The notes under the pieces were generated by a model. The model searched no databases. It was given only the letters and a program-made list of their open reading frames with translations, and was not told the origin of the DNA. Positions 1 to 54,915 of a stretch of 64,000 bases of DNA are shown here, piece after piece. Position 1 is the stretch's first letter. Each line of letters begins with the position of its first letter. Source of the stretch: a virus (lineage: Duplodnaviria > Heunggongvirae > Uroviricota > Caudoviricetes); the IMG/VR virus record IMGVR_UViG_3300042474_001151, positions 112,431 through 176,430 of that record; one strand, written 5' to 3'. The position numbers and the translations under genes were made by a program.

Positions 1-211
1 TGCAAACATAATCAATAATGATTTGACATTAGGGGTTTCTCACATGTTTAGGTATAACGACTTCGATGGTGGATCACAAGAATGGTACCTTGGGCCACTT
101 TTACAATATCGTTTTAATAACAAAGGTTATTTGAATATTGAGCATATGCCAGGTTTAAATCAGGACGCTTATAAATCAAGAACCACAATCATATTCGCAT
201 GGAGATTTTAA
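1..211 (+). CDS. C-terminal fragment of a possible outer-membrane beta-barrel protein. The gene begins before the window.
   Basis: The ORF is open to the window start. Alternating aromatic and hydrophilic residues end in ...AWRF with a terminal Phe, as in OMP C-termini. Confidence 0.3.
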   Translation, partial: ANIINNDLTLGVSHMFRYNDFDGGSQEWYLGPLLQYRFNNKGYLNIEHMPGLNQDAYKSRTTIIFAWRF

Positions 212-1206: not shown

Positions 1207-1257
1207 TCTTTACATTTTTAAAATTAAGATATATATTATAAAATAGAATTAAAAAAT

Positions 1258-1728: not shown

Positions 1729-1741
1729 TCCCTTTTTTTTA
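1717..1741. terminator. Bidirectional intrinsic terminator between convergent genes
   Basis: GGGACT-TTAT-AGTCCC stem-loop with an A-run before and T8 after. The stop codons of both convergent ORFs lie inside the hairpin. Confidence 0.75.
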
Positions 1742-6806: not shown

Positions 6807-6811
6807 TTTTT

Positions 6812-7393: not shown

Positions 7394-7451
7394 TTTTTTT
7401 TATTTAATATAGTTATTTTTTCTGACAATTTATAATGTTTAATAATAATTT

Positions 7452-8333
7452 TTATTTAGTATTATTTATAAAATTAATTATACTTTGCCAAGCCTTATCT
7501 TCGTATAATTTATATACATTATCATTTTTTTGATTTTTTGTTCCTATTCTTTTTCTAGGGTGTACTTGATTATGTCCTTTTAATCTGGTATTAATATGAT
7601 ATTGAGGTACTCCTTTTTTTGAAAAAAACATTTCTAAACAATAATCTTCTCGAGCAAAATGAAGATCTAAAGGTAAAAATGGATATGGGAGATTTTGAGA
7701 TAGTGCAGTCATATTCCCATCTATTTTTAATTTTTTTAATTTAATTACAGTTGGTTCAAATTGTTCATTAAATTTATTTAATTCATCTAATGTTATGTAA
7801 TCAGCACAATTAAAAGGTTTAGGTGCTTGTTCTGGTCGGATAGGAGGACCATTTCTTGGAAATTGATGTACCCAAGGATGTTCAACCTCATCCCAAGTAT
7901 TATCCCACATTTTTCTAGTTGCTAATGATAGAAAATGAGGTTCTTCTATGACAATATTTGATAATAAATAAAAATAATCTTCAGGTACTAAACAATCACT
8001 TTCTCCCCATACAATATATTTGTAATCATATTCCGACCCGTATATATCTCTTCTCCAATCACCTATATTATAAAATGGATCTGAATCTTTTTTAGTTATT
8101 ATTTTGGATTTACTAATTAATGGATGTTGAAGGAAATGTTTAAACATTTTTTCAGGTTCAATTCCTTCATCTGGTTTTTCTATATATGTTTGAGAATTTA
8201 AACATATTATAATATCTACATCTAATTCACTATGTATAATAGATTCTTGTAATGAATCTAATGTTTCTAAAATCATTTCAGATTCATACCACATTATATG
8301 TAATGTATATAAAATTTTACCCATATTATTCAT
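7452..8333 (-). CDS. Hypothetical protein in the glycan-synthesis cluster
   Basis: 293-aa ORF in operon-like arrangement. Confidence 0.45.
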   Translation of the reverse strand: MNNMGKILYTLHIMWYESEMILETLDSLQESIIHSELDVDIIICLNSQTYIEKPDEGIEPEKMFKHFLQHPLISKSKIITKKDSDPFYNIGDWRRDIYGSEYDYKYIVWGESDCLVPEDYFYLLSNIVIEEPHFLSLATRKMWDNTWDEVEHPWVHQFPRNGPPIRPEQAPKPFNCADYITLDELNKFNEQFEPTVIKLKKLKIDGNMTALSQNLPYPFLPLDLHFAREDYCLEMFFSKKGVPQYHINTRLKGHNQVHPRKRIGTKNQKNDNVYKLYEDKAWQSIINFINNTK

Positions 8334-9201
8334 ATTTTAAAATTTGTTCTATTCTTTCTTCAAGAGTATATTTTGGTTTATAAATTGAAAGCATTAACTC
8401 AGGATTACAAACTCTATAAGATACCCCTATGGGTTTATTTGTTAAATGTAATATACCATTTTTAGGTTTCCAATCAGATATATCAAACATTGTTTTAGCT
8501 AACTCATTAAATGAAGTTGATATACCACTTCCTAAGTTTAGTGCATCTACTTGAATATCATCATTTACTACGGTCATTACCGCTTCAACAATATCTTCCA
8601 TATGGATAAAATCTCTAACTTGATTCCCATCCCCCCAAATTTCAAAAGTATTAACTTTTCTTTTAATACGATTTATAAAGGAAGGAAATGGATAAGTTAA
8701 ATCTTGGTCCGCTCCATAACCTGAAAATGGTCTAAAAACGTAAACTTTTGTTCCTTGTTCCCTAACAAATTTAGCTAAATATTCTCCTGTTAATTTAGAC
8801 CAGCCATAGGTATAATCAGGAAGTCTAATATCATTTAGATTAATATCAGATTCTTTTAAGTGATATTTTAATTCTGGTGTCTGTAAATGAATAGGGTAGG
8901 CTGCCGATGAACTAAAATATACTATTTTCGGTTGTTTTGTTTTTACAACCCAATTAAAAAATTCTGAATCGATTGATAAATCTGTTGCTACCGATAATGG
9001 TTCATTTTCAATTGTTTCTCTACCACCTACAATAGCTGCTAAATGAATAATTAAATCAAATTTTTCTACTGAGTGCTTAAAAAAATTTCTACAATCATTC
9101 CCTTCTTTTAAATCAATCCCTGTTATATCATGTTGATTTTTAAAGTATTTTAAAAAGGATCTACCAACAAATCCTAAATGTCCCGTTATTAAAATTGTCA
9201 T
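8326..9201 (-). CDS. NAD-dependent epimerase/dehydratase
   Basis: MTILITGHLGFVGRSF...HLAAIVGG; SDR-type Rossmann fold. Confidence 0.7.
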   Translation of the reverse strand: MTILITGHLGFVGRSFLKYFKNQHDITGIDLKEGNDCRNFFKHSVEKFDLIIHLAAIVGGRETIENEPLSVATDLSIDSEFFNWVVKTKQPKIVYFSSSAAYPIHLQTPELKYHLKESDINLNDIRLPDYTYGWSKLTGEYLAKFVREQGTKVYVFRPFSGYGADQDLTYPFPSFINRIKRKVNTFEIWGDGNQVRDFIHMEDIVEAVMTVVNDDIQVDALNLGSGISTSFNELAKTMFDISDWKPKNGILHLTNKPIGVSYRVCNPELMLSIYKPKYTLEERIEQILKYE

Positions 9202-9204
9202 AAA

Positions 9205-9843
9205 TTAAATTGATTTGTAAAAATTATTTTGTTTTTCTTGACGTTCTATCGTCTTATGGTGTTCTATACAGTATTCTTCGTCTAAAGGTAATGATGAGAA
9301 TTTTTGACCACCATAAACTTTCTCATGTACCTTACCATACCAACTCATTCCTTTCTTATATATTCTTCCTTGAGCATCCGGAAAATTTATCCATCCATTT
9401 TCATTAACTCCCCAACCCCACTTTTGAATATGTTCTTCGGTTATACCCTCCACAGTGTTAATCCTCGGTACAAAAATTAAATCAACATCTTTATTCATTT
9501 CCAATATTTGATGTAAATTTTTAACCATATACTCACTAATCATCTCATCTGCATCTAGTTGATAGATATAGTCACCTTTACAATAACCATTTAATATATT
9601 TTTAAAATCAGAGAAATTATTATTCCAATCGAAACATCTCCATGTTTGGACATTTGGAAATTTATTATACGGTAATAAAAAATCTAATACTTCGGGATTA
9701 CCATTTGTTTCATCATATAGAACTACAATTTCGTCTTGAGCTCTCTTGTGTTTCAGTAAGAAAGGTACTAATCTCTTTATCTCCTCCAATTCCTTGCAAA
9801 CTGTTATTGCAAAACTTATCTTCATATTTCTTTTTATTTTCAT
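9205..9843 (-). CDS. Family-2 glycosyltransferase
   Basis: SFAITVCKE...QLDADE (DxD) motif. The true start may be the Met at 9825. Confidence 0.65.
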   Translation of the reverse strand: MKIKRNMKISFAITVCKELEEIKRLVPFLLKHKRAQDEIVVLYDETNGNPEVLDFLLPYNKFPNVQTWRCFDWNNNFSDFKNILNGYCKGDYIYQLDADEMISEYMVKNLHQILEMNKDVDLIFVPRINTVEGITEEHIQKWGWGVNENGWINFPDAQGRIYKKGMSWYGKVHEKVYGGQKFSSLPLDEEYCIEHHKTIERQEKQNNFYKSI

Positions 9844-9912
9844 TTATTGTTAATTCCTCACATTTCCAACACCACTCTCTATCATCCGTGTCCCAACTAT
9901 GTCTTTCACATT

Positions 9913-10161
9913 TCATGCTCTATTTTCCCCCATTCTTAACCAATGGTTTAAATAATCAAAACCATGATTACCACCGCCGTTTATACTTCTTGTTATTACA
10001 TTAATAATTTCTTCATCAATACCTCTGGCAATTTCTTCTGACATCATTCTAGTTAATTCAGCCTCAGCATGTATACCATAATGCTCATGTTCTTGTGCTG
10101 ACCACGTTGCGGTTAACGTACTTCTAATTACCCCGTGAAAAAATTTAAAATTCTTAACCAT
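9913..10161 (-). CDS. Small protein with N-terminal MVKNFKFFHG motif (FKFFxG family)
   Basis: Taking the internal Met as start gives MVKNFKFFHG. This matches the N-termini of the 44.4-47.5 kb family. Confidence 0.4.
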   Translation of the reverse strand: MVKNFKFFHGVIRSTLTATWSAQEHEHYGIHAEAELTRMMSEEIARGIDEEIINVITRSINGGGNHGFDYLNHWLRMGENRA

Positions 10162-10390
10162 TTTGTATCTCCCTTGCAAATAATTTAAACTCTTTATCAT
10201 TGTCGGTGAACAACATACTGGTATCTGAAGTTGGACTTAATCGAATTGAACATTCATTTGGTCCTGTTGCAAATACAATAGGTTCATTGTTTCCGAACTG
10301 AAAACAAAACTCAACATTCTCTGGTGTAAATGTATGTGGTTGAAAAAGAAGTGTTGGTGTTTCATCACCTTTGAAAAATTTGAAGTTCAT
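10154..10390 (-). CDS. Small protein with N-terminal MNFKFFKGD motif (FKFFxG family)
   Basis: N-terminal motif; its C-terminus ...EFKLFAR is paralogous to that of the next gene. Confidence 0.45.
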   Translation of the reverse strand: MNFKFFKGDETPTLLFQPHTFTPENVEFCFQFGNNEPIVFATGPNECSIRLSPTSDTSMLFTDNDKEFKLFAREIQNG

Positions 10391-10392
10391 TA

Positions 10393-10668
10393 CTATTTTT
10401 TTGGTCTAGCAAATAATTTAAATGTTTTACCTGATGTCGGGTCGGTAAACTTAATATAACCCTCGTTAGTATTTTGTATCCTAATAATAACCTCAGGTGA
10501 TTCTACGGTTTCATCAGCTGTTGTGAATAATTGAGGTTCATCATTATCAAATTGAATCATCCATTCACATGGCATATAAATTTCAATTTTTGGCCCATCA
10601 TCAATTGTTAATTTGTCAATAACCGATTGTAATAATTCCTCCTTTATTTTTTTTCTACCTCTTGCCAT
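10393..10668 (-). CDS. Small hypothetical protein, paralog of 10154..10390
   Basis: Shared C-terminal ...TFKLFARPKK. Confidence 0.45.
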   Translation of the reverse strand: MARGRKKIKEELLQSVIDKLTIDDGPKIEIYMPCEWMIQFDNDEPQLFTTADETVESPEVIIRIQNTNEGYIKFTDPTSGKTFKLFARPKK

Positions 10669-10669
10669 A

Positions 10670-11917
10670 TTATTTAATTTTTGTTAATTTAGGTAAAATT
10701 AGTTTTTGTTCTTTTGGTTGTATTGAGAATGGATTGATGATGTCTTTAAACTTCTCTTTCATTTTTTCCATTGAGAATTTTTCTTTATTCTCATCACCCA
10801 ACATCATAGACTTTTCTAAAAACTTATCATAGTCTTTGTAAACCAATTTAAAAACTTCAGTCACTTCGTTGTAATTTGCGGTAAACCATTTAGAATCTTT
10901 TAATATGAAAGTATCGACTGCACTTTCGTGAACCTCAGTTAATTTTCCACCAATCATAATTGCTTTATCCATCGGTAAGAAATCCTTATGTCCCGACCAG
11001 TTTGATGCAATCACAGGTTTACCCGTCATCGTAAATTCTAATAAAGGTCTACCAAACCCTTCACCTTTTGTAATCGTAACCATTGATTTAACTTTAGGAT
11101 GATTATATAAATTGTTCATCTCATCATTAGTTAAATCACCAAACAACAAATAGATTGATGGTGGATTTTCATAACCACTTACTAACCCTTCTATCTTCTT
11201 TCTAAAACTTTCTCTTTCTTTGATTGAGAATGATGCTGATGATGTTTTAAGGATAAGTGCAGGTCTATCCTCAACACCCTTAAACGATTCGGCGAAACAT
11301 CTAATCAACATACCAACATCTTTTCTATCTTGACCTGTGTCACCCTTTAACCAATGACCAACAAACAAGTAAGCAAAATCTTCTTTGATGTCAATGTCAA
11401 TGTTGTTATAAACGTTGTTGTATATTTTGGTATCAACACCTTCGAATAGTACTTCTATCTGTCTTTCGATTTTGTGTTGTTTGATTAACTTACCCGTGTT
11501 TTGTTCATTCTCATTATAAACTGTTTGTAACAAAACATCTTTTGAAAACGTGGACGTTGTAATGATTAAATCCATTCTATTACAACCATCAATCCAATCC
11601 TTAGGTGCGATAGTTGTTTCAATACCAGCAGTAATTCCGATATTAAATTTACCAACTCTTTGGAATTCATTTGGAACGGTTACTTGAACGTAAATGTCTG
11701 GTGTCTTTTCTAACTGACTAACAATATTAGACTCAATCCATTTATGAAATAAATTATCTTCCAATGCTGTCATCGGGGTTGAACCCCACATACAACTATC
11801 AATCTTAATTTCAAACAAATCCATTTCATAAAGTGCTTGTAACAAATCTCTTGAGTGTGCACCGTATCCACTTCTTGTTTTAACTGGTCCCCTAAATAAT
11901 AAAAATGGTTTGTTCAT
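10670..11917 (-). CDS. GT-B (GT1/GT4-like) glycosyltransferase
   Basis: C-terminal GEGFGRPLLEFTMTGKPVIAS resembles the EX7E motif of retaining GT4 enzymes. Confidence 0.6.
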   Translation of the reverse strand: MNKPFLLFRGPVKTRSGYGAHSRDLLQALYEMDLFEIKIDSCMWGSTPMTALEDNLFHKWIESNIVSQLEKTPDIYVQVTVPNEFQRVGKFNIGITAGIETTIAPKDWIDGCNRMDLIITTSTFSKDVLLQTVYNENEQNTGKLIKQHKIERQIEVLFEGVDTKIYNNVYNNIDIDIKEDFAYLFVGHWLKGDTGQDRKDVGMLIRCFAESFKGVEDRPALILKTSSASFSIKERESFRKKIEGLVSGYENPPSIYLLFGDLTNDEMNNLYNHPKVKSMVTITKGEGFGRPLLEFTMTGKPVIASNWSGHKDFLPMDKAIMIGGKLTEVHESAVDTFILKDSKWFTANYNEVTEVFKLVYKDYDKFLEKSMMLGDENKEKFSMEKMKEKFKDIINPFSIQPKEQKLILPKLTKIK

Positions 11918-11918
11918 A

Positions 11919-13319
11919 TTATATAATCTTGTATAAATTAAATTTACTTCTCGGCTTAAAATTCTCTAAGGTTTGTTCGATACCCTCAATCATTTTATCA
12001 CACATTATTTTATTTGATAGATTGTTAATTACAAATTCTCTACCCTTTAATCCTTTTTCCTTTCTTTTCTTTTTACTTAGTTTGTACATTTTCATGATGG
12101 CGTTTGCAACATCATTATCATTAACTCTATCATCAAAGATATATGGTGTAGGAACTGAACCATTTAAATTAATTGCTGATGACCAAACAGGTTCAACCCA
12201 ATCACCATGATTTATATTACCATGTACTTCTTTATTGTGAAGTGTACCTACTTCGATATAGTCATCTGCACTAAAATCAAACCCACATTGGTCTTGTAAT
12301 CCACCAGTAACATTAACAATGATTGGTACACCTGCCATTAAACTCTCTGCGGTTGTTAAACCAAATCCTTCATTGTTTGCAATGTTAATTGTACAATCAA
12401 CACCGTTATAGATCTCATTTAACTTATCTTGTTCTAATTTTAAATTTGTAAACTTAACATCGTAATCTTTACAAACAGCATCAATTACGGCAGGTAAATC
12501 AGTACCATTCTCATCAACAGGATTTGTGTGCATTAATAACAAACACTTATCTGCTTTTTCTTTTGGTAACATATCACAGAACAATCTAAATGAATAAATC
12601 ACATCACTTGGTTGCTTCCTTCTAATATTTCTATTGTTGAAGAATAAAACAAAATCATATTTTTTATCTCCATGAATTAAATTATTAACGTCATCCGATA
12701 TTCTATCCAATGGTTTAAATAAATCAGGATTAATGCCGTGAGGAACATAACTAATTTGCCAATCTTTCAATGGATTGAAAGTTACTTTATCGGTTCTCTT
12801 ACCAACACGATGTACAATACCATACGTTTGTTTAGATATACAACCTAACCAATCGCAAGATTCAAAAACATCTCTATTATATTGTGGGTCTGGTAAATCA
12901 TCCCATATATGATAAAATAATATTGGAGTGTGTTGTCTTATTTCGTGTTCCACATCGTACAACCACTGCCAATAATGTGGGTCAGTAAAGTGTAAAATGG
13001 CGTCAGGTTTTTCTTCATCTATTAATTTACGAAGAATACCAACGTCACCATAACCATTATATGGAATAATTTTCAAATTAGCATCTTTAACACCAGTCCT
13101 TGTTCTAATATCGTCGTTAACATCAACAACTTTACCAAACTCTGGATGTTTAATTGCCGCACCTAATTGTACCCAATCATATTTGTGAATGGTACCCATC
13201 ACAATTTCTTTCGACATTGTGGCAATACCACTTGTCATTCTTAAATCATCAGATAGTAATAATATTTTTTTCTTCATATTAAAATTTGGATCCCCTAATC
13301 CCAAGAGTTTTATGGTCAT
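11919..13319 (-). CDS. GT-B (GT1/GT4-like) glycosyltransferase
   Basis: NNEGFGLTTAESLMAGVPIIV EX7E motif. Confidence 0.7.
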   Translation of the reverse strand: MTIKLLGLGDPNFNMKKKILLLSDDLRMTSGIATMSKEIVMGTIHKYDWVQLGAAIKHPEFGKVVDVNDDIRTRTGVKDANLKIIPYNGYGDVGILRKLIDEEKPDAILHFTDPHYWQWLYDVEHEIRQHTPILFYHIWDDLPDPQYNRDVFESCDWLGCISKQTYGIVHRVGKRTDKVTFNPLKDWQISYVPHGINPDLFKPLDRISDDVNNLIHGDKKYDFVLFFNNRNIRRKQPSDVIYSFRLFCDMLPKEKADKCLLLMHTNPVDENGTDLPAVIDAVCKDYDVKFTNLKLEQDKLNEIYNGVDCTINIANNEGFGLTTAESLMAGVPIIVNVTGGLQDQCGFDFSADDYIEVGTLHNKEVHGNINHGDWVEPVWSSAINLNGSVPTPYIFDDRVNDNDVANAIMKMYKLSKKKRKEKGLKGREFVINNLSNKIMCDKMIEGIEQTLENFKPRSKFNLYKII

Positions 13320-17194: not shown

Positions 17195-17563
17195 ATGAAA
17201 AATAAAGATACAAGTCTATTAGCATTCGGGGCGATTGTTTCCCTATTTGGGGTATTTGTTTCATTAATGTATTTTAATGATAAACCCACACCAGTTGTGA
17301 CAACAACAATCTGTAAGGAAGATTCATTACAAAACGTAATTAATGAATTACAAATGGATTTGAAAATGCAATCAGATGGTTTTGATTTCAAAGAAAGAAG
17401 ATATTCTGAAATTTTATTTGAATATGAATATGGGGTTGACCATTTAAAAAATTATCAACCACAAGCATATAGAGAGTTTCATAGAATTTTATCCCATAAG
17501 GAAAATTTTAGCAGACAAGACGAACAAGATAATATTAAAAGATTAGAAACACCAAAATGGTAA
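17195..17563 (+). CDS. Signal-anchored hypothetical protein
   Basis: Start chosen at MKNKDTSLLAFGAIVSLFGVFV, an N-terminal TM segment. Confidence 0.45.
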   Translation: MKNKDTSLLAFGAIVSLFGVFVSLMYFNDKPTPVVTTTICKEDSLQNVINELQMDLKMQSDGFDFKERRYSEILFEYEYGVDHLKNYQPQAYREFHRILSHKENFSRQDEQDNIKRLETPKW

Positions 17564-18708
17564 ACATGAATAGATTAGATAAAAGATATCAAGATTTATT
17601 ACAAGATATTTTAGATAATGGAGTCGTAAAAACGGACAGAACTGGTACAGGTACAATATCGGTATTTGGTAGACAAATTAAACATAAGATGTCACAAGGG
17701 TTTCCATTACTTACCACAAAGAAAATTGCGTGGAAAACAATGGTAACCGAGTTGTTATGGTTTCTACGAGGGGATACCAATATCAAATACCTTGTCGATA
17801 ATGGTTGTAACATTTGGAATGGTGATGCATTTAAGAACTACACTAAAAAAATTAATGATGTTATTGATGGATATAAGTGTGGTGACATAATGGGGATGCA
17901 ACCACACATGGAAGTGTGGTTTAGTGATTCTGATAAATTAACACCATTAACTCAAGAAGAGTTTATTGACAAAATAAAAACGAATGATGAGTTTGCTGAA
18001 CGATGGGGTGAGTTAGGACCAATATATGGTAAACAATGGAGAAGTTGGTTAAAAGTGGGTGAAGAGGTTGATCAAATTCAAAACCTAATTGATGAACTTA
18101 AAACAAATCCAGATAGTAGAAGACTAATGGTGTCCGCATGGAATGTCGGTGAGTTAAACCATATGATTCTTCCCCCTTGTCATTACGGGTTTCAAGTTTA
18201 TACCAGAGAATTAACCGGTGAAGAAAGATGGGACTTACTGAAGAAGAAGGTAGGTGAAGAAAGATTTCAATTAATGGTAGAAGATATTGTTCCATTTGGT
18301 GGTGGATTAAGTGAGGAGTTACAAGTATATAATATCCCTAAACGAGCAATATCATTAATGTGGAATCAAAGATCTGTGGATACATTCTTAGGATTACCAT
18401 TCAACATCGCATCATATGGTTTGTTATTGGAAATTTTTGCTAGAGAAGTGAACATGATTCCAGAAGATTTGATTGGTAATTTGGGAGATGTACACTTATA
18501 TAAAAATCACATCGAACAAGCTAAGGAACAAATTAATAGAGAACCATATAGGAATCTACCTAAATTGGGATTCAGTCCAATACCATTGGCACACTTTGAA
18601 CATCATGTGGATAGTTTTAATGATTTTGTAAATCGTTTACAACCACACCAATTCATTATTGACGAGTACGAAAGTCATCCACCAATAAAAGCCCCATTAA
18701 GTAATTAA
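17557..18708 (+). CDS. thyA: Thymidylate synthase (ThyA family) with two large insertions
   Basis: RTGTGTISVFG, GELGPIYGKQWR, PPCHYGFQVY and DLIGNLGDVHLY motifs. 383 aa, with inserts of about 50 aa each. Confidence 0.9.
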   Translation: MVNMNRLDKRYQDLLQDILDNGVVKTDRTGTGTISVFGRQIKHKMSQGFPLLTTKKIAWKTMVTELLWFLRGDTNIKYLVDNGCNIWNGDAFKNYTKKINDVIDGYKCGDIMGMQPHMEVWFSDSDKLTPLTQEEFIDKIKTNDEFAERWGELGPIYGKQWRSWLKVGEEVDQIQNLIDELKTNPDSRRLMVSAWNVGELNHMILPPCHYGFQVYTRELTGEERWDLLKKKVGEERFQLMVEDIVPFGGGLSEELQVYNIPKRAISLMWNQRSVDTFLGLPFNIASYGLLLEIFAREVNMIPEDLIGNLGDVHLYKNHIEQAKEQINREPYRNLPKLGFSPIPLAHFEHHVDSFNDFVNRLQPHQFIIDEYESHPPIKAPLSN

Positions 18709-19619: not shown

Positions 19620-21521
19620 ATGGAAGATATCATAACTCAAAAATTCACCTATGCAACCATTACGGTTTTCAAGGATTATTGTAAAATAATTGATAAGAAA
19701 GAATCATTAAGTTCAATGGGGGTTGATTTGGACTCACTTGACGATGGGGATGATGATATATTTGAAAGTGCCAAGAGTCTTATAAAATTCACAATCGATG
19801 ATATGAGAAGACCGACCGTTGGCCGAACAACGGAATTTCCCGAAAAGGTAGGAAAAAGAAAAACAAAATTTTTCTATGGTGAACCTGGCATAAATGAACG
19901 TACCATAATAAATTACGCAATTAGAAATTTCGAGACCAGGGACGATAGACACATTAAGAAATATTATGGTAGCCCGTTTAGTGAAATAACCGTTACCACA
20001 ATTGAACGTTCTATTAGGAGACACGGAAATAAAATAACAATTAAACTATATCGACACCATAGACACAGAGCGTTTAACAACATTTACTTTAAGAAATCAA
20101 CTGGTGTTGAGTCAGTAACGTTTAATGTTAATAATGGTAATTTTACCACACTTAGTATGAATAAAAGTGGTAGGAAAACAACTAAGACATTTAGAACCAA
20201 CAACTTCAACTTTTTGGAGATGCAATTCAAAGATGGTGGAATTTTAAACATGAGAAAGTGTTTAGATGACAACTCTGTTCTGTTGAAAGAGTATAATGAG
20301 ACATTTAATAATACGGATTTTATTTTTGAAATAGATAAGGTATTCAATCTAAATCAGAATTTTAGTTTTAATGGTACATGGTTCTGTCAATTAATGTTAG
20401 AACGATTTGTTGAATTGAAAAAGATTAAAGTATCTAACGATTACGGTATATGGATTAAAAAGTATTATCCCACTGAAAAGTTTTTAAAGAAAAACGACAG
20501 AAAATTAATTGCTTCGATTTTGGATATGTTTCAAATCAAATCTAAAATTACAATTAAAATAATGCATGAAAATACTAAAATAGATATACATGCATTATCT
20601 CGTTTATGTTATTTTTTCGGTGATAATTTTTCAAAATATATTGGTAGTATCGATTTGGTACATTTTATGAATTCAACATACGAAGACACCGTTGATATTG
20701 GTTACCCTAAATTTAAATTTGCGGAAGAATTAAAAAAAGAAAAGTTCCTAATAACAAATATCGAAAAGGAAAATATCGTTAAAATCATTAATAATTTAAA
20801 CAACGAAATACGAGGATATCAAAGATTAACCAATAAGAAAGAGACATTGATTAACCATAGATTTATCGGTGATTTAAATGATCATTTTAAGATGATTGAT
20901 AAATTACGTAAATTCATACCTGATTTATATTTAAAATCTAAAAACATAGATGATTTTGATAAAGAACATTTGGAATTATCTAAAATGATGAAATTCATTA
21001 AAAAGGGATATGTTATTGAATATCAATTTGTTGATAAGATGGTTAACGATGTAGAATCACCAATTAAAGTTAAGATTAATTTAAGTGATGATGAGTCAAA
21101 TCCCGAATGGGTCACTCCCGAATTCTATCCTTATATCTTAAAACGAGAAGAGGATTATGATGAGGAAGGTAATTTCATGCACCATTGTGTGGCATCATAT
21201 TCGGATAAAGAAAAATCGATTATTGTTTCGGTAAGAACTGAAGATAAAAAAGATAGGGTTACTTGTGAATTTGATTGTCAAACAGGTACTCTAATTCAAG
21301 CGAGACACTTTTGTAATAAACAACCTCCTGCTGACATTGATTTAGCCGTCAATATCCTAAAAGAAAAAACTAAGCACTATGCTAGAATGGGTTTATTACA
21401 TTCTTTAGATAAAAAAAAGGTACCGGTTAAAATTAATGGAATAGAAATTATACCTGAAATTAAAGAACCAACACGAATATCTGATGTGTTATTTGATATG
21501 AGGCGTGAACCTGCATTTTAA
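19620..21521 (+). CDS. Large hypothetical protein with a C-terminal PcfJ-like motif (HHCVASY)
   Basis: FMHHCVASYSDKEKSIIVSVR resembles the PcfJ-domain signature. Paralogous to the next gene. Confidence 0.55.
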   Translation: MEDIITQKFTYATITVFKDYCKIIDKKESLSSMGVDLDSLDDGDDDIFESAKSLIKFTIDDMRRPTVGRTTEFPEKVGKRKTKFFYGEPGINERTIINYAIRNFETRDDRHIKKYYGSPFSEITVTTIERSIRRHGNKITIKLYRHHRHRAFNNIYFKKSTGVESVTFNVNNGNFTTLSMNKSGRKTTKTFRTNNFNFLEMQFKDGGILNMRKCLDDNSVLLKEYNETFNNTDFIFEIDKVFNLNQNFSFNGTWFCQLMLERFVELKKIKVSNDYGIWIKKYYPTEKFLKKNDRKLIASILDMFQIKSKITIKIMHENTKIDIHALSRLCYFFGDNFSKYIGSIDLVHFMNSTYEDTVDIGYPKFKFAEELKKEKFLITNIEKENIVKIINNLNNEIRGYQRLTNKKETLINHRFIGDLNDHFKMIDKLRKFIPDLYLKSKNIDDFDKEHLELSKMMKFIKKGYVIEYQFVDKMVNDVESPIKVKINLSDDESNPEWVTPEFYPYILKREEDYDEEGNFMHHCVASYSDKEKSIIVSVRTEDKKDRVTCEFDCQTGTLIQARHFCNKQPPADIDLAVNILKEKTKHYARMGLLHSLDKKKVPVKINGIEIIPEIKEPTRISDVLFDMRREPAF

Positions 21522-21551: not shown

Positions 21552-22970
21552 TTGTATATGGATTTATTATTTATACACAACCAAGAGAAGAAAGACAAGA
21601 AAAGTAAATCATTATCAACGTGTGATTTAAAGTTATATAATGACGATGATGATATTGTTTACAAATCTACATTTGATTTTGATTACCAAAGATATGGTAA
21701 AAATAAAAAAGTTCTTTTTGAACATGAACTGGTTTTAAATAAAAAAACCGGAGACATCTTTATAACGTATAAAATTGTTAATGATGGTTTAACAGACATG
21801 AAAATGTTTAGAACCACCACCAAACAAAAAAAGAATAACTTTAGTTTATTATTAGATTTAACTGAGAATGGTTTTGAGAGGGGAGAAAAGAGAATTGGGT
21901 TTTGGGGAGTGAAGTATTCAAGAGCAACTAATAAAATAATAGAATTAATTTATAATTTAATCAAAGATAATTTCAAATCAGAATTTATCATTCAAAAAAT
22001 TAATAAGGGTGAGTGTGAAATAAACTTTCTTTATGATATGGTTGTTGATTTTCATTTAGAAATGAAGGGTATTAAAGGACACGACAGTGTTTATTATGAT
22101 ATACAACATGATTACCCCAAAAAGAAATGGTTAGAGAAAAACGATTATAAATTTCTACCGTCGGTGTTAGACCACTATGGAATCAAATCAAAATATCTTA
22201 TTGGTGAATTGAATAAACAGAATTCCCATAAGAGTATTAAGTTAGATTCTTTAAACTATATCTGTAAATTATTTGGTGACAATTACATAGATTATTTAAA
22301 GAAAATAAAATGGGAGAAACATTGTTTTGATTATACACCCAACAAAAAATTACACGTATTAAAAAATGATACGGAAAAAAACTGTATGGTTAGTGTTATT
22401 AATAAGTGGGAGAGTGATTCTTTAAAAACAGATTCATTAGTTTATTTGGTCAATAAGTTATTATCAATTAGAGAGTTACTTGAAGCTAGAGGAGTTGAAT
22501 TAAAATTTAAAGCTAAGAACGATAATGAATTTGATAATTTATTGGAGATGTGGTCAGGAATTAAATTTCATTTCGCTCGAGGTTATAAAGTTAGATATGA
22601 TTTACCAAAAGAATTTATGGATGAGATTGAGGAAGATATTATAGTTGGTGGGGAATCATTTAAACCCAAAGTTTTGGTGACAGAAGAGGATTTTAGAATT
22701 GAAGGGTTTAATATGAAAAACTGTATGTCTAAACAATTTCCACACGGATCAATATACATTTATGTTGGGTTACAATGTAAACGAAAAAGGATAAACCTAC
22801 AATATCGTAAGGGAGGTTTGGTACAATCATATGGTAAAGCTAACACACCAACATTGGAGATGTTCAACGATGCGATAACCATATTAACCCAAAGGTTTAA
22901 AAAATACACATATCTTGAATGGAAAAAGGAAAAATACGACTTCCTAACTAACTCATTATCAATACTTTAA
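21552..22970 (+). CDS. Large hypothetical protein, tandem paralog of 19620..21521
   Basis: Shared K[FW]L[KE]KND.K...LD..IKSK...L..C..FGDN block and a degenerate C-terminal motif. Confidence 0.55.
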   Translation: MYMDLLFIHNQEKKDKKSKSLSTCDLKLYNDDDDIVYKSTFDFDYQRYGKNKKVLFEHELVLNKKTGDIFITYKIVNDGLTDMKMFRTTTKQKKNNFSLLLDLTENGFERGEKRIGFWGVKYSRATNKIIELIYNLIKDNFKSEFIIQKINKGECEINFLYDMVVDFHLEMKGIKGHDSVYYDIQHDYPKKKWLEKNDYKFLPSVLDHYGIKSKYLIGELNKQNSHKSIKLDSLNYICKLFGDNYIDYLKKIKWEKHCFDYTPNKKLHVLKNDTEKNCMVSVINKWESDSLKTDSLVYLVNKLLSIRELLEARGVELKFKAKNDNEFDNLLEMWSGIKFHFARGYKVRYDLPKEFMDEIEEDIIVGGESFKPKVLVTEEDFRIEGFNMKNCMSKQFPHGSIYIYVGLQCKRKRINLQYRKGGLVQSYGKANTPTLEMFNDAITILTQRFKKYTYLEWKKEKYDFLTNSLSIL

Positions 22971-23053: not shown

Positions 23054-24028
23054 ATGAAATATTTCTCAGTATGTAGTGGAATCGAGGCCGCAACAGTGGC
23101 TTGGTCCCCATTGAATTGGAAATGTGAAGGGTTATGTGACTTCGCATCTTTCCCACAAAAAGTATTATCACATCACTATCCAACAACCCCATTATTTTCA
23201 GACTTAACAAAATTAAACGAACATGAAAGTTACAGAAACATCAGCTTCGACCTATTGGTCGGAGGAACGCCTTGTCAATCTTTTTCCGATGCAGGACTCA
23301 ACAAAGGAATGGATGATGTCCGTGGTCAACTCTCCCTTGAGTATGGAAGAATTCTTAAAGAAAAACGACCAAGATGGTTCATTTGGGAAAATGTCGAAGG
23401 CGTTTTTAAAAGCAAACACAGAAAAGCGTTATGTGAAATCATCTCCTCTTTCACAGGTACTAACTTCAAAGCAGAAGACCTCGACAAACAAGGTGTTGTC
23501 CAAGGAGAAGAATACTCCATCGCTTATAGGGTTTTCGACAGCCAATACTTCGGAGTTCCCCAACGACGCAAAAGAATCTTCATTGTTGGATATCGTGGAA
23601 ACAATTGGAAAGTCCCATTCTCCGTATTATTTGAAGAAGGATGTTTTGAAAGCGTTAAAGAGAAGAATCGAATCAAGAGGGATGAGTACGCCAGAAATGT
23701 TCTTGGAGAAATTAAACTCGCAGGTACAGTAACAAAATCACACGCATCTACATTGGTTGATGGGTTTGGTAAAGTATCTACGTCTAACTATTGGATTGAT
23801 AACAATAGTATTAGAATCTTCACAGAAAGAGAATTAGAGAGACTCCAAGGGTTTCCCGATGGTTATCTTGATTTTGAAATTGGTGGTAAAAAACCAAGTT
23901 ATTCAAATGTTAAAGGTGCAATAGGTAACTCTATGACTGTCAATGTAATGTATTGGATTGGTCAACGAATTAATTTTATTGACAATTATATTCAATCTAA
24001 AAATATTTTGAAATCCGAGAAAATTTAA
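23054..24028 (+). CDS. dcm: DNA (cytosine-5)-methyltransferase
   Basis: Motif I FSVCSGIEA, motif IV GGTPCQSFSDAG, motif VI IWENVEG, QRRKR, and C-terminal GNSM. Confidence 0.9.
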   Translation: MKYFSVCSGIEAATVAWSPLNWKCEGLCDFASFPQKVLSHHYPTTPLFSDLTKLNEHESYRNISFDLLVGGTPCQSFSDAGLNKGMDDVRGQLSLEYGRILKEKRPRWFIWENVEGVFKSKHRKALCEIISSFTGTNFKAEDLDKQGVVQGEEYSIAYRVFDSQYFGVPQRRKRIFIVGYRGNNWKVPFSVLFEEGCFESVKEKNRIKRDEYARNVLGEIKLAGTVTKSHASTLVDGFGKVSTSNYWIDNNSIRIFTERELERLQGFPDGYLDFEIGGKKPSYSNVKGAIGNSMTVNVMYWIGQRINFIDNYIQSKNILKSEKI

Positions 24029-25333: not shown

Positions 25334-25560
25334 TATACGATTTAAACGAACCAGATGATGTAATGGCACATAAAAGAGCCGTTAAATCATTGGATTTAGC
25401 ATTAGCACTATGGACCATAACTCATAACACTAAGAAAGGGTTGGAGTGGTCTATGGAGGGAAAAGAGATAGACAAATACGACGCTCTTGAGTTGGTGTTT
25501 GAAAAGATACATGAAATCATATCCGAACATAATATCGATTTAGACGATCTAATTTTATGA
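25315..25560 (+). CDS. Hypothetical protein
   Basis: ORF only. Confidence 0.4.
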   Translation: MAKAKLVYDLNEPDDVMAHKRAVKSLDLALALWTITHNTKKGLEWSMEGKEIDKYDALELVFEKIHEIISEHNIDLDDLIL

Positions 25561-25583
25561 TATTTATCATATAAACAAATACT

Positions 25584-25994
25584 ATGGCATACTCAGATAA
25601 GGTCTTAGACCACTACTCAAACCCTAAAAACGTGGGGACATTGGACAAATCTAAATCAAATGTCGGTACTGGATTAGTCGGTGCTCCTGAATGTGGTGAC
25701 GTAATGAGATTACAAATAGAGGTGGTTAACGATATCATTGTTGACGCTAAATTTAAAACTTTTGGATGTGGTTCAGCTATCGCATCTTCTTCAGTTGCAA
25801 CCGAATGGTTGAAAGGTAAGAGTTTAGATGAGGCGGTGACAATTGATAATATGGATTTGGTAGAGGAGTTAAATCTTCCTCCAGTTAAAATACATTGTTC
25901 AGTATTGGCGGAAGATGCTATCAAATCAGCAATAAACGATTATAGAAAAAAACAAGGATTAGAGGAAATAATCTTTGAGGAAACTCACATTTAA
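25584..25994 (+). CDS. iscU: Fe-S cluster assembly scaffold IscU/NifU-like
   Basis: GAPECGDVMRLQI, FKTFGCGSAIASSS and LPPVKIHCSVLAEDAIKSA, the three conserved Cys regions. Confidence 0.9.
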   Translation: MAYSDKVLDHYSNPKNVGTLDKSKSNVGTGLVGAPECGDVMRLQIEVVNDIIVDAKFKTFGCGSAIASSSVATEWLKGKSLDEAVTIDNMDLVEELNLPPVKIHCSVLAEDAIKSAINDYRKKQGLEEIIFEETHI

Positions 25995-26317
25995 TGGTAA
26001 CAGTATCAGAAAAAGCAGCAATTAAATTAAATTCACTTATTGAAGAAAGTGGGTTTCAAACTCCCTTTGTTAGAGTGGCTGTTAAAGGTGGTGGGTGCAG
26101 TGGATTATCATATGACCTTTCATTTGATACCGAGCAACAACCTGCCGATACTCTTGCAGAAAACAATGGAGTAAAAATTTTAATAGACAACAAATCATTA
26201 CTATATCTTTTTGGAACCGAATTAGATTTCTCTGATGGACTTAACGGTAAGGGATTTCAATTTATTAACCCAAATGCATCTCGTACTTGTGGATGTGGGG
26301 AAAGTTTCGCTCTTTAA
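25994..26317 (+). CDS. iscA: A-type Fe-S carrier (IscA/HesB/SufA)
   Basis: GGGCSG...CGCGESF motif; the start overlaps the iscU stop. Confidence 0.9.
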   Translation: MVTVSEKAAIKLNSLIEESGFQTPFVRVAVKGGGCSGLSYDLSFDTEQQPADTLAENNGVKILIDNKSLLYLFGTELDFSDGLNGKGFQFINPNASRTCGCGESFAL

Positions 26318-26913: not shown

Positions 26914-27195
26914 ATGCCAGAATTTACATCAGAAGTAGACATCGACCCAAGTGAATTTATTGAGTCTTGTAGTAAGAAAGAAAAAGACAGATTAGTTGAA
27001 ATCCTTATTGAGGATGGATACATTCAATCAGACCAAGAAACTAAGAGTACTAACAATGGTGTCCGTAGACCGAACATTAATGACCAAACATTTTGGGAAA
27101 GTTTAGAACGTCTTGCAAAGTGTAGGCATTTATTATCCATCGAAGAAGAGAACTTCATCAATAACCTATCTAACAAGTTCAAATACATACGTTAA
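26914..27195 (+). CDS. Hypothetical protein
   Basis: ORF only. Confidence 0.45.
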   Translation: MPEFTSEVDIDPSEFIESCSKKEKDRLVEILIEDGYIQSDQETKSTNNGVRRPNINDQTFWESLERLAKCRHLLSIEEENFINNLSNKFKYIR

Positions 27196-27809
27196 TGAAA
27201 GTACTTGAGTTATTTGCGGGTAGTCGTTCAGTAGGAAAGATTGCAGAAGAATTAGGAATGGAAGTATTTTCATCTGATTTAATTGAATTTGAGGGTATTC
27301 ATTACCCAATTAGTATATTAGATTTTGATGTATCTAAAGTTCCGTTTCAACCCGATGTAATTTGGGCATCTCCACCATGTACTGGTTTCAGTGTTGCAGC
27401 AATCGGTCACCACTGGTCAGGAGGTAAAGGTGCTTATATACCTAAAACAGAAACCGCAAAGTTGGGTATTGAATTAGTTAGAAAGACATTAGAAATTATT
27501 AATCACTTCCAACCAACATATTGGTTTATGGAAAACCCACGAGGTGTTCTTCGTAAGTTAGATGTTGTTAAAGGATTGAAAAAGAATTCTGTAACTTATT
27601 GCCAATATGGTGACGAGAGAATGAAACCAACTGACATATGGACTAACAGTGATGTGTGGACTCCAAAACCAATGTGTAAGAATGGTGACCCATGTCACGT
27701 TGCCGCACCAAGAGGTAGTAGAACAGGAACACAAGGTCGAGCCAACGCTTACGAAAGAAGTAAGATACCGGCAGATTTATGTTTAGAAATATTAAAAAGT
27801 TGTTTATGA
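27195..27809 (+). CDS. Short C5-MTase-like methyltransferase (FxGxG, PC, ENP motifs)
   Basis: LELFAGSRS (motif I), SPPCTGFS (PC motif), MENPRG (ENV-like). Confidence 0.5.
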   Translation: MKVLELFAGSRSVGKIAEELGMEVFSSDLIEFEGIHYPISILDFDVSKVPFQPDVIWASPPCTGFSVAAIGHHWSGGKGAYIPKTETAKLGIELVRKTLEIINHFQPTYWFMENPRGVLRKLDVVKGLKKNSVTYCQYGDERMKPTDIWTNSDVWTPKPMCKNGDPCHVAAPRGSRTGTQGRANAYERSKIPADLCLEILKSCL

Positions 27810-28730: not shown

Positions 28731-29156
28731 ATGATTGAAAAATTTGATCCATATCATCAACACCTTTTAATGAAAATTTGGATTAACCACCCACCAAAAG
28801 AGGTTGAGACTTTAAATAAATGGTTTGTTGATTTAGTTCACAAAGTAAAAATGGAAGTAGTCGGTGGTCCAACGAGTGTTTATGTGGACTATCCAGGTAA
28901 TGAGGGTTTAACGGGGACAGTTACTCTTGCGACCTCACACTCATCAATACACATATGGGACCAAGACCAACCGGCGATGGCTCAATTTGACATTTATAGT
29001 TGTAAATGTTTCTCATTGTCAGATGTGTTAGAACAATTTGAACCTTGGGGTATTGTTAATGCGGAGTGGGTAATGATTGATAGAAATAGTAAACCAACGG
29101 TAATATCCGAAGGTACTTGGTCTCCACAAATTGAATATATTAACGAAAACTCTTAA
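28731..29156 (+). CDS. S-adenosylmethionine decarboxylase-like (small pyruvoyl-dependent class) protein
   Basis: GLTGTVTLATSHSSIHIWDQ...DIYSCK parallels the prokaryotic AdoMetDC ESHISIHTWPE region. Confidence 0.45.
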   Translation: MIEKFDPYHQHLLMKIWINHPPKEVETLNKWFVDLVHKVKMEVVGGPTSVYVDYPGNEGLTGTVTLATSHSSIHIWDQDQPAMAQFDIYSCKCFSLSDVLEQFEPWGIVNAEWVMIDRNSKPTVISEGTWSPQIEYINENS

Positions 29157-32405: not shown

Positions 32406-32873
32406 ATGAACATTTTCTTTTTAGATTGGAACCCAAAAAAATGTGCAGAATACCATAACGATAAACACGTCGTCAAAATGATATTAGAAACTGCCCAATT
32501 ACTTTGTGGTGCACATTGGGCAACCGGTGGAGAGGCTCCTTATAAGTTATCCCACAAGAATCATCCTTGTTCTGTGTGGGTTAGAGAGGATTTACAGAAT
32601 TATATTTGGTTAGTTGACTTAGGGTTCAACCTATGTCAAGAATATACATATCGATACGGAAAACGTCATAAAACACAGGATATTATTGAGTGGTGTGCTT
32701 ATCACAGACCAAAAATTAAGGATTTAGAATTCACGCCACCAGCACTTGCAATGCCCGATAATTATAAAGTGTACGATGACACCATCCAATCTTATAGAAA
32801 TTATTATCTTGGAGATAAAAAGGAATTTTGTAAATGGAAAGGTAGAGAAACTCCAGAATGGTTCCAATTGTAA
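32406..32873 (+). CDS. Hypothetical protein
   Basis: ORF only. Confidence 0.45.
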   Translation: MNIFFLDWNPKKCAEYHNDKHVVKMILETAQLLCGAHWATGGEAPYKLSHKNHPCSVWVREDLQNYIWLVDLGFNLCQEYTYRYGKRHKTQDIIEWCAYHRPKIKDLEFTPPALAMPDNYKVYDDTIQSYRNYYLGDKKEFCKWKGRETPEWFQL

Positions 32874-36278: not shown

Positions 36279-37235
36279 ATGGCAAAATTTAGTAGATACG
36301 ACTATCGTTATGATAATCATGGTAATCGTAGGTCAGAGGAAGAACTTGACCGTTTAGAAACACAATTTAATAATGAACAACAATTAAAACTAAAAAAAAT
36401 GATTAAGGCAATCGGAGCAAGCGTTATAGGATTTTTCCTATTAGTGGTATTATTCAATTCGTGTGAGAGAATTGATGCAGGTTATGTGGGTGTTAAAGTA
36501 AACCAATATGGTGATAACAAAGGTGTGGACGATGTAGTAGCAGTTACCGGTATGGTATTCTATAACCCACTTACTACAAAAGTATATGAGTTCCCTACGT
36601 TCATTCAACACAAAGAATATAAAAAAACAGAGGATGCTGATAATTCATTCATTGTAAATTCAAAGGATGGTTCGGAATTTTCCGTTTCACCAATCATGAA
36701 CTATTCAGTTCAAAGAGATAAAGTACCTGCAATTTTTAGTAAGTATCGTAGACCTTTGGAAGATATTGAGGAGGGATTCTTGAAGACATCAGTATACGAT
36801 GCGTTCAGATTAGCAACTAACAAATATACGGCTGATGAATTAATTAGTAATAGAGCAGTATTTGAGGTTGAAGTTCGTAGATTATTAGACGCTCAGTTAT
36901 TAAAAGAGGGATTCGTTATCAATCAATTCACATCAAATTTAATTTATCCTGAAACATTTAAGAAGTCTATTGAGGCTAAGAACAACGCAGTTCAGGCGGC
37001 ATTGAGAGCGGAGAATGAAGTTAAAACTGCAGAAGCTCAGGCGAAGATTAAAGTAGCAACTGCGGAAGGTAATGCTCAAGCGATGTTAACATCAGCTAAG
37101 GCGGAATCCGAGGCAAATAGAATGAAACAACAAACTCTTACACCGTTATTATTACAATTAGAGTATATCAACAAATGGGATGGTAAGTTACCAGTATATG
37201 GAACAGTTCCACAGATGTTCAAAAATATTCAATAA
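36279..37235 (+). CDS. SPFH/band-7 (stomatin/prohibitin-like) membrane protein
   Basis: N-terminal TM segment, SPFH-like core, then an A/E/K-rich coiled tail. Confidence 0.6.
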   Translation: MAKFSRYDYRYDNHGNRRSEEELDRLETQFNNEQQLKLKKMIKAIGASVIGFFLLVVLFNSCERIDAGYVGVKVNQYGDNKGVDDVVAVTGMVFYNPLTTKVYEFPTFIQHKEYKKTEDADNSFIVNSKDGSEFSVSPIMNYSVQRDKVPAIFSKYRRPLEDIEEGFLKTSVYDAFRLATNKYTADELISNRAVFEVEVRRLLDAQLLKEGFVINQFTSNLIYPETFKKSIEAKNNAVQAALRAENEVKTAEAQAKIKVATAEGNAQAMLTSAKAESEANRMKQQTLTPLLLQLEYINKWDGKLPVYGTVPQMFKNIQ

Positions 37236-37774
37236 TGAAATTTACCGAAACAGAAATAGAAGGTTGTTACATAATAACCTACGATACGTTTCATGACGAA
37301 CGTGGTTACTTCGCCGTACCATATAATAAAGATATATTCAATAATAATGTGGGGTATGAAGTGGAGTTCATTCAGGATAATATGTCATATTCTCATTTAG
37401 GGACCATTAGAGGACTTCATTTCCAAACAGGTGAGTACGAACAGGCCAAACTTGTTACGTGTATCACCGGACGAGTATTGGATGTTATCGTTGATATTAG
37501 AAAGGAATCCCCAAGTTATGGTAAGGTTGTTGAGGTTGAACTTGGTTGGAAAAAAAACAAACAAGTGTTCATACCAAGAGGATGTGCTCACGGATTCTCG
37601 GCGTTAAGTGATAATACAATATTTCAATATAAAGTTGATAACCCATACAACAAAGAAAGTGAAGGTGGGATTATATACAACGACCCAACTTTGAATATCA
37701 ATTGGAGAGTGAGTGGTTACTTAGAAAGAATATCTGAAAAGGATTTAGAACTACCAACTTTCTTATCTTTATAG
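37235..37774 (+). CDS. rmlC: dTDP-4-dehydrorhamnose 3,5-epimerase
   Basis: RGLHFQ...QAKLVTCITGRVLDVIVDIR...IPRGCAHGF and YNDP motifs. Confidence 0.85.
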   Translation: MKFTETEIEGCYIITYDTFHDERGYFAVPYNKDIFNNNVGYEVEFIQDNMSYSHLGTIRGLHFQTGEYEQAKLVTCITGRVLDVIVDIRKESPSYGKVVEVELGWKKNKQVFIPRGCAHGFSALSDNTIFQYKVDNPYNKESEGGIIYNDPTLNINWRVSGYLERISEKDLELPTFLSL

Positions 37775-54903: not shown

Positions 54904-54915
54904 AGATATAAATAT

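Follow-up and report, generated by a model that had tools for sequence, protein, structure and literature searches.

Introduction

Viral genes for an IscU scaffold and an A-type carrier of iron–sulfur (Fe–S) clusters are already published auxiliary metabolic genes. Among 16 environmental marine viral genomes, 14 were reported with an A-type carrier and six with an IscU, radical S-adenosylmethionine (radical-SAM) genes being present in the same genomes, and the marine viral IscU proteins grouped with those of Gammaproteobacteria, e.g. SAR86 (Nishimura et al. 2017, PMC5332604). HMO-2011-type phage genomes bear iscU together with erpA (Du et al. 2022, PMC9038755), while Nitrospirota viruses from Lake Baikal encode a ferredoxin and an iron–sulfur cluster assembly protein, the latter of which was proposed to mature the former (Coutinho et al. 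2020, PMC7678222). A role of viral assembly genes in Fe–S supply has thus already been put forward (PMC5332604, PMC9038755, PMC7678222). Here we analyzed an iscU gene (25584..25994) and an adjoining A-type carrier gene (25994..26317), both encoded on the + strand of a 64,000-nucleotide stretch of viral DNA (IMG/VR record IMGVR_UViG_3300042474_001151, positions 112,431 to 176,430), referred to as the window in the following. An original prediction made from the letters of the window and its open reading frames (ORFs) had regarded the two genes as a phage-encoded Fe–S cluster biogenesis pair.

Fe–S clusters are required by radical-SAM enzymes, ferredoxins and many enzymes of DNA metabolism. In the bacterial ISC pathway, IscS makes persulfide sulfur, clusters are built on C37, C63 and C106 of IscU, and A-type carriers take them over for delivery. 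With the corresponding operons (iscS-iscU-iscA in Chitinophagaceae and other Bacteroidota, iscRSUA-hscBA-fdx in Proteobacteria) the viral pair shares two protein families, their order, the ligand residues and the LPPVK motif. The resemblance to the Chitinophagaceae operons extends to an IscU identity of 79–87% and to a common C-terminal tail. Unlike bacterial isc operons, however, the viral pair comes without iscS, hscBA, fdx and iscR; its genes overlap, are shifted towards low G+C and have the motif ATATTTAT in front. The viral carrier is, moreover, far more diverged than the scaffold, with at most 69% identity to sampled host IscA.

The pair resembles the marine cases (PMC5332604, PMC9038755) in that IscU and/or the carrier occur without a desulfurase and in the proposed supply to viral radical-SAM or other Fe–S proteins. 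It differs from them, judged by their descriptions, in being Bacteroidota-derived, apparently from freshwater, and a fixed overlapping pair that often includes a ferredoxin. With the Lake Baikal viruses (PMC7678222) it has in common a freshwater virus, a host-derived Fe–S assembly protein and a viral 4Fe-4S ferredoxin, but host phylum and genes are different, and the ferredoxin, which separates iscU from the carrier in about 27 of 80 relatives, does not occur in the window. A further IscU-type gene, annotated as ‘NifU-like Fe-S cluster assembly protein’, is found in phage C48C1 (Kyanoviridae, OQ984149, 156 kb) and shows 71% identity over 121 aa. In contrast to the pair described here, this gene stands alone and is followed by one for an unrelated hypothetical protein; no A-type carrier was found there, and the C48C1 genome is overall unrelated to the window. 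PHROGs already holds families for both window proteins (phrog_8429 and phrog_17776).

This example does not alter current views of viral auxiliary metabolic genes. What may be new lies in the details, namely a donor operon from Bacteroidota, a loss of iscS without exception, a compact self-promoted cassette found in multiple backbones, and the insertion of a ferredoxin. On the basis of sequence comparisons, we consider it probable that the pair represents functional, virus-resident IscU and A-type carrier steps of the bacterial ISC pathway, which were captured, most likely once, from a Chitinophagaceae-like Bacteroidota iscS-iscU-iscA operon without iscS, have been kept under purifying selection as a cassette of ~770 bp with a viral promoter-like motif, and would raise Fe–S supply during infection.

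Results and discussion

Assignment of the two proteins

The 136-aa product of 25584..25994 is, by all sequence criteria applied, a bona fide IscU. It reached 211.9 bits on the NCBIfam IscU profile TIGR01999, exceeding the curated equivalog cut-off of 192.4, and stayed under the cut-offs of both the NifU and the SufU model. Pfam NifU_N (PF01592) matched residues 2–124 with an E-value of 1.4e-50 and phrog_8429 matched with 4.1e-40, while the nearest solved structures were bacterial and human IscU/ISCU (E ~1e-55 to 1e-59). The cluster ligands of IscU are three cysteines together with Asp39 and His105 (E. coli numbering), and LPPVK serves as the recognition motif for HscA, a chaperone of the Hsp70 type. 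The viral protein has the complete set of ligand residues (GAPEC37GD39, GC63GS, H105, C106) and also contains LPPVK.

For comparison, IMG/VR was scanned; close relatives of the IscU were found on at least 584 viral contigs, of which the best 80 (IscU 86–99% identical) formed our detailed viral sample. The cellular sample comprised the 80 best IscU loci from a scan of GTDB species genomes. C37, D39, C63, LPPVK, H105 and C106 proved invariant over 81 viral and 80 cellular homologues, and not a single fixed amino-acid difference separated the viral from the host IscU proteins in this set. A Bacteroidota-type C-terminal tail (…KKQGLEEIIFEE…) was likewise common to viral and Bacteroidota copies.

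The second gene encodes an A-type Fe–S carrier of 107 aa (IscA/ErpA-like). It scored 120 bits on TIGR00049 (NCBIfam cut-off 58.8) and matched Pfam Fe-S_biosyn (PF01521; E 2.8e-18) as well as phrog_17776 (E 8e-33); E. coli IscA (YfhF) and relatives were the nearest solved structures (E ~1e-24). On the equivalog models the carrier remained below threshold, with 108.8 bits against a cut-off of 117 for ErpA (NF010147) and 96.4 against 150.6 for IscA (TIGR02011). The same below-cut-off NCBIfam profile was displayed by IscA from Bacteroidota host operons and by both types of viral carrier described below. For this lineage, the ErpA and IscA subclasses are not separable with these models. The cysteines C35 (GGGCSG), C99 and C101 (TCGCGESF) were present and invariant in the viral and cellular sequences (81 and 80, respectively). 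Thus, the scaffold, the carrier and the full set of conserved cysteines (C37/C63/C106 of IscU and C35/C99/C101 of the carrier) that the original prediction had named were all confirmed. Given the extreme E-values and the conservation of the pair in hundreds of contigs, chance matches are of no concern.

The junction between the two genes turned out to differ from the predicted ATGA overlap of 4 nt. At …cacatttaATGgta (tttaATGgta), the TAA stop of iscU and the ATG of the carrier have one base in common (TAATG). Compacted junctions were found in 43 related viral loci, 33 of them with TAATG (–1 nt) and 10 with ATGA (–4 nt). Because the genes do overlap, translational coupling of iscU and the carrier is still plausible.

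Origin of the viral iscU

All of the best 80 cellular IscU proteins belonged to Bacteroidota, mostly to Chitinophagaceae (Sediminibacterium, Ilyomonas, Ferruginibacter), and were 79–87% identical to the IscU of the window; a gammaproteobacterial homologue (Acinetobacter) reached 72%. The guess of a Bacteroidetes host is therefore borne out by the nearest cellular relatives. In 78 of the 80 cellular loci, iscS directly adjoined iscU on the upstream side, whereas it was found in none of the viral loci. An A-type carrier followed iscU in every cellular locus and in all 80 viral loci except five that ended at a contig edge. The spacer between iscU and the carrier was always positive in the cellular loci, measuring 23–210 nt in most of them. 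Homologues of IscS, HscA, HscB, the [2Fe-2S] ferredoxin Fdx and IscR were found neither in the window nor in any fetched viral locus; genes for HscA and HscB were not found near the Bacteroidota isc operons of the 80 cellular loci either. The viral pair thus lacks the association with IscS, which bears on operon context and not on membership in the IscU family.

To place the viral sequences among those of host Bacteroidetes, as had been recommended with the prediction, a neighbour-joining tree of IscU was calculated (136 aa, 53 distinct viral sequences, 100 bootstraps). The viral proteins formed one clade without any cellular sequence (73/100 bootstraps), and a large set of Chitinophagaceae sequences was its sister. 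This separate position suggests that a single capture of iscU by these viruses is likely. The viral carriers fell into two lineages, which were 84–100% and 52–67% identical to the carrier of the window. Compared with the marine cases, the locus adds a clear Chitinophagaceae-type iscSUA donor from which the desulfurase was always left behind. A host-derived IscU may also serve as a marker for host prediction in abundant, uncultured large freshwater viruses.

A constrained cassette in several backbones

The median ratio of nonsynonymous to synonymous substitutions (dN/dS) among viral copies was 0.050 for IscU (dS 1.5) and 0.067 for the window-type carrier (dS 1.3). Such low values indicate that both genes have resided in these viruses for long under strong constraint and are neither recent passengers nor pseudogenes. 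Their third-position G+C (0.31 and 0.19) has moved toward the viral composition, the median of cellular iscU being 0.37.

Genomes otherwise unlike the window shared 78–86% nucleotide homology with it only at ~25550–26317, i.e., over both genes and ~30 nt upstream. This cassette of ~770 bp was present in at least 4–5 distinct backbones, including that of the window, a PolA-GroEL-class II ribonucleotide reductase (RNR) type, a PolB-GroEL-RNR type, and a type with a TonB-dependent-receptor-like protein, a GHMP kinase and a cupin. Genes encoded by the other cassette-bearing backbones comprise GroEL, a class II (B12) ribonucleotide reductase, a family A or family B DNA polymerase, and a Bacteroidota-style TonB-dependent-receptor-like outer-membrane barrel with a CarboxypepD_reg domain (L025:12141-13766, L069:2103-3953, L024:7661-9976, L069:11631-14207 and L071:12496-15783).

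In front of the cassette, a promoter-like motif, ATATTTAT, is located at 25560..25567 (+ strand), 24 nt upstream of the iscU ATG and within the 23-nt spacer that follows the stop of the preceding ORF. Its core was kept 10–25 nt before the iscU ATG in nearly all viral contexts, including unrelated ones, and the homology among unrelated contexts starts at ~25550–25560, that is, around the motif. Both strands of the 64-kb window together contain seven copies of ATATTTAT, each situated 12–32 nt upstream of a same-strand ORF start, a zone that covers only 3.5% of strand positions in the window. On the + strand, copies at 25560, 30720, 34353 and 40288 precede genes starting at 25584, 30734, 34385 and 40300; on the – strand, copies at 54915, 14060 and 13803 precede genes starting at 54903, 14036 and 13790, respectively. 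The gene at 30734 encodes a peptidoglycan-binding, lysin-like protein. Across 1.14 Mb from 81 related viral loci, 286 copies were counted, of which 148 (52%) were gene-proximal in the right orientation and 3% in the opposite one, the distance range having been picked after inspection of the data. Most control octamers of the same composition were gene-proximal in 3–9% of cases, while octamers overlapping the motif (TATTTATA, ATTTATAT, TATATATT) reached 15–39%. From this distribution, ATATTTAT probably defines a class of promoters in this group of viruses, and the candidate promoter could help to define their transcription programme. Its placement is reminiscent of that of T4 late promoters, which we take as a lead and not as a test. 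A 19-nt upstream element, TGATATTTATCATATAAAC, was also considered as a repeat and rejected, as it occurs in a single copy in the window and only the ATATTTAT core recurs. A sigma-70 promoter scan around the cassette was uninformative, with 11 promoter-like sites against 12.3 expected, and a scan of the same surroundings for intrinsic terminators found none.

Homology confined to ~25550–26317, the presence in at least 4–5 backbones and the motif data would allow a more far-reaching interpretation, according to which the cassette is a self-promoted, horizontally exchanged viral Fe–S module (iscU, an optional FdxA-like ferredoxin, and the carrier) moving among unrelated large freshwater phage backbones. 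The viral ferredoxin would then replace the [2Fe-2S] ferredoxin of the ISC pathway as electron donor, Fe–S assembly would be semi-autonomous and lack only the desulfurase, and the module would be co-expressed with late or lysis genes via the ATATTTAT promoter class. Taken as a whole, we regard this scenario as rather unlikely.

Candidate clients and proposed mechanism

The original prediction had envisaged an as-yet unseen phage-encoded radical-SAM or ribonucleotide reductase enzyme as the beneficiary of the pair and had advised a search of the rest of the genome for Fe–S enzymes. The outcome of this search was divided: the window itself yielded none, and a radical-SAM protein and a ferredoxin appeared on related contigs. 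The radical-SAM gene (L196:5369-6367; 333 aa) is placed by synteny ~4.6 kb left of window position 1, ~30 kb from the cassette. The contig concerned is 97.6% identical to the window over a shared segment (10007–13484 of L196, corresponding to 205–3680 of the window), and the contigs with this gene also bear the cassette, with an IscU that is 99% identical. The anticipated phage radical-SAM enzyme thus turned up by synteny, just beyond the start of the window. The protein scored 36.5 bits on Pfam Radical_SAM (cut-off 29.5), contains a C9xxxC13xxC16 motif and a Cys-rich C-terminal segment, falls into no assignable subfamily, and is kept in 59 of 71 viral loci with a left flank (69–100% identity). 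A regular-expression search for radical-SAM CxxxCxxC motifs in the ±10-kb flanks of the 80 viral loci returned none. The ribonucleotide reductase of the related backbones, by contrast with the expectation, is of class II (B12-type) and does not count among the Fe–S clients.

A second candidate client is a 102-aa FdxA-like ferredoxin. Its gene follows iscU and precedes that of the carrier in ~27 of the 80 related viral loci, while ~30 have it either there or beside the two genes (L024:10422-10727, L048:10425-10727, L069:10422-10727; a second type at L005:14436-14732). In further relatives, the ferredoxin gene lies directly after the pair or within 10 kb. The protein contains two Cys clusters and is nearest to the 7Fe FdxA type (7Fe/2x4Fe-4S), with scores under the equivalog cut-offs. 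Loci with this ferredoxin include some with the backbone of the window; a ferredoxin search in the window itself gave no match. The FdxA-like ferredoxin was also absent from the isc operon neighbourhoods of the 80 cellular loci.

Based on these assignments, the following mechanism is conceivable. Viral IscU would dock on host IscS, from which sulfur would be supplied, and would build [2Fe-2S] or [4Fe-4S] clusters with host iron and electrons. Docking should be possible because no fixed amino-acid difference separates viral from host IscU. The clusters could then be handed from viral IscU to the viral A-type carrier, which would insert them into apo-proteins. As the viral pair covers the assembly and carrier steps only, it must use the IscS, iron and reductant of the host. 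Prospective viral clients are the radical-SAM enzyme ~30 kb away in near-identical genomes and the FdxA-like ferredoxin of many sister genomes. The benefit would consist of extra Fe–S clusters for viral and needed host enzymes while host protein synthesis is redirected; a virus bringing its own scaffold and carrier can ease an Fe–S bottleneck in the infected cell. How the proteins would act, when they would be expressed and what the virus would gain are all extrapolated from sequence data. In comparison with the marine cases, the locus adds long purifying selection, several lake-virus backbones and a physical linkage to viral Fe–S proteins.

Several observations weigh against the proposed capture and function of the pair. 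The IscU tree is built on 136 aa from a best-hit-biased sample and has moderate support; because of this sampling and the shortness of the protein, single capture is likely rather than proven. The viral carriers are only 49–69% identical to sampled Bacteroidota IscA, and both carrier lineages fall outside a monophyletic Bacteroidota IscA clade (36/40 bootstraps). Capture of the carrier together with iscU, followed by faster divergence, would be the simplest reading, yet owing to this divergence and tree position it is parsimonious and not proven, and the carrier may instead have been replaced from another source. Furthermore, a Pfam scan of the window gave no recognisable Fe–S protein, no radical-SAM protein and no RNR, and the radical-SAM gene is assigned to this exact genome by synteny with near-identical contigs and not by window sequence. 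Finally, Pfam and PHROG searches of the window and of ~47 kb of syntenic walk brought up no recognisable capsid, portal or terminase gene.

The dependence on host IscS would also suit a decoy or sink, in which viral IscU would tie up host IscS, or the carrier would trap iron or clusters, thereby starving or re-routing host metabolism or blunting oxidative or iron stress. Without a viral desulfurase, viral IscU must indeed compete with host IscU for host IscS, and both its IscS-binding N-terminus and LPPVK are fully conserved. A pure decoy, however, would have no need of all the catalytic and ligand residues, which are kept here at a dN/dS of ~0.05, and the co-occurring viral ferredoxin and radical-SAM protein point to clients instead of sabotage. 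Given the conserved catalytic residues and the candidate clients linked to the cassette, a decoy or sink is the less likely function, and we judge it quite improbable next to the supply of Fe–S clusters.

Nature of the virus

The window comprises 117 ORFs (≥45 aa) at 93% coding density, arranged in long runs of genes on one strand. Pfam matches were obtained for only ~35 ORFs, and the remainder are mostly short orphans. Several ORFs match solely prokaryotic-virus PHROG families, and relatives of a GP88-like protein were detected in 264 phage records, among them those of Pelagibacter phages and of jumbo phages of 300 kb. The region further contains homing endonucleases and TnpB. A tRNA search of the window found none, and its Pfam/PHROG annotation contained no rRNA, ribosomal or other cellular core genes. 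The G+C content is ~0.325, compared with a median of 0.395 in cellular isc loci. The cassette does not lie at a contig edge, since it is flanked in the window by 25 kb upstream and 38 kb downstream with PHROG-only families, the GP88-like protein and DUF932.

The local gene order of the window recurs in ~47 of the 80 viral loci; the largest contigs in this set of 80 measure 238 and 334 kb. An outward walk on syntenic contigs covered ~27 kb to the right (L170, L193), where HNH and homing endonucleases, an esterase and orphans were met, and ~20 kb to the left (L196, L272), where three tandem phrog_1417 paralogues, the radical-SAM gene, a methyltransferase and a 2033-aa ORF were found without structural annotation. 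The immediate neighbours of the radical-SAM gene are the phrog_1417 paralogues, phrog_1458 proteins and the methyltransferase, the 2033-aa ORF lying further left (L272:3880-9981). The combined coordinates of the syntenic contigs give a virus genome of at least 131 kb, probably >170 kb.

From these sequence features, the assignment of the element to a virus of bacteria is well supported. As no capsid or terminase gene turned up, ‘tailed phage’ rests on indirect evidence, and another large mobile element or a eukaryotic giant virus with acquired bacterial genes was weighed as well. Contigs of up to 238–334 kb, GroEL, PolB and many sugar-modifying enzymes in relatives, and the giant-virus label of one related metagenome-assembled genome (MAG) contig (L085) would fit such an element, as would the lack of a recognised capsid or terminase gene. 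The dense, overlapping genes are of bacterial style, however, and the NlpC/P60, PG_binding_1, M23-like lysin and GH19 proteins are directed at peptidoglycan. A Bacteroidota-type TonB-dependent-receptor-like protein in relatives, many prokaryotic-virus PHROG matches and the capture of genes from Bacteroidota point in the same direction, and render a giant virus or other mobile element very improbable compared with a virus of bacteria.

An even more remote alternative, a piece of Bacteroidota chromosome or a host contig that was mis-binned or mis-assembled and bears the host's own iscU-iscA, draws on the 79–87% IscU identity to Chitinophagaceae, the host-like order of iscU before the carrier, the labelling of relatives as Bacteroidota or Planctomycetota MAG proteins by some metagenome sources and the lack of virion hallmark genes in window and walk, but is largely refuted by the absence here and in all viral loci of the iscS found in 78/80 cellular loci, the 1-nt overlap in place of positive spacers (23–210 nt in most), 64 kb without tRNA, rRNA or core genes and with 117 mostly orphan short ORFs, the phage-only PHROGs, GP88-like protein, homing endonucleases and TnpB, a G+C of 0.325 against the cellular-locus median of 0.395, and a viral IscU clade that holds no cellular sequence. 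The predicted setting in viral instead of host-chromosomal DNA accordingly holds, with PHROG-only families, the GP88-like protein, the lack of tRNA, core genes and iscS, and the ≥584 IMG/VR relatives.

Viral Fe–S assembly genes had been called uncommon at the outset. For cultured phages this is accurate, as a single convincing IscU record (C48C1) was found among 50,697 phage records; for freshwater metagenomes it is not. Judged by sample numbering and MAG names alone (e.g. ME2004-05-19_3300042291), most of the sequences may come from metagenomes of Lake Mendota. In the same set of records, a megablast search with 12 kb around the cassette gave no match. Matches by tblastn to ‘Acinetobacter phage MD-2021a’ (L009 = CAKLQH020000011.1; CAKLQF020000009.1) were rejected as phage evidence, because they represent an ordinary iscRSUA-hscBA-fdx operon of bacteria, with ppiD, hupB and mfd as neighbours, i.e., a mislabelled Acinetobacter chromosome. 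Counts of ‘phage IscU’ would be inflated by these records.

Further genes of the window

Beyond the cassette, the left part of the window is occupied by a 13-kb island on the – strand (1723-13319) with genes for NAD-dependent sugar epimerases, GT2 and GT4 glycosyltransferases, a xylose-isomerase-like TIM barrel and an FAD oxidoreductase. This island appears to be hypervariable between near-identical genomes, as the 97.6%-identical contig diverges completely past position 3680. A thymidylate synthase of 383 aa follows at 17557-18708 (+ strand). Its PHROG match spans a large gap, suggesting an insertion of ~100 aa relative to typical ThyA, and the long form (median 371 aa) is kept in 20 related viral loci. 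A PcfJ-like protein of 633 aa (19620-21521) and an adjoining 472-aa protein (21552-22970), both on the + strand, fall into one similarity cluster and thus look like tandem paralogues; the PcfJ-like cluster was found in 38 related loci.

The cassette is bracketed by two C5 cytosine DNA methyltransferases (23054-24028 and 27195-27809, + strand), which are kept in 36–42 related loci. Further downstream on the same strand are genes for an AdoMet-decarboxylase-like protein (28731-29156), a T4 endoV-like pyrimidine-dimer glycosylase (32406-32873), an SPFH/Band 7 protein (36279-37235) and a dTDP-4-dehydrorhamnose 3,5-epimerase (37235-37774). NlpC/P60, GP88 and DUF932 proteins are likewise recognised by Pfam in the window. 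A TnpB/Cas12f1-like protein with IS605 OrfB and TNB domains, assigned to phrog_506 (‘transposase’), is encoded at 51776-53143 (+ strand), where the gene strand turns from + to –.

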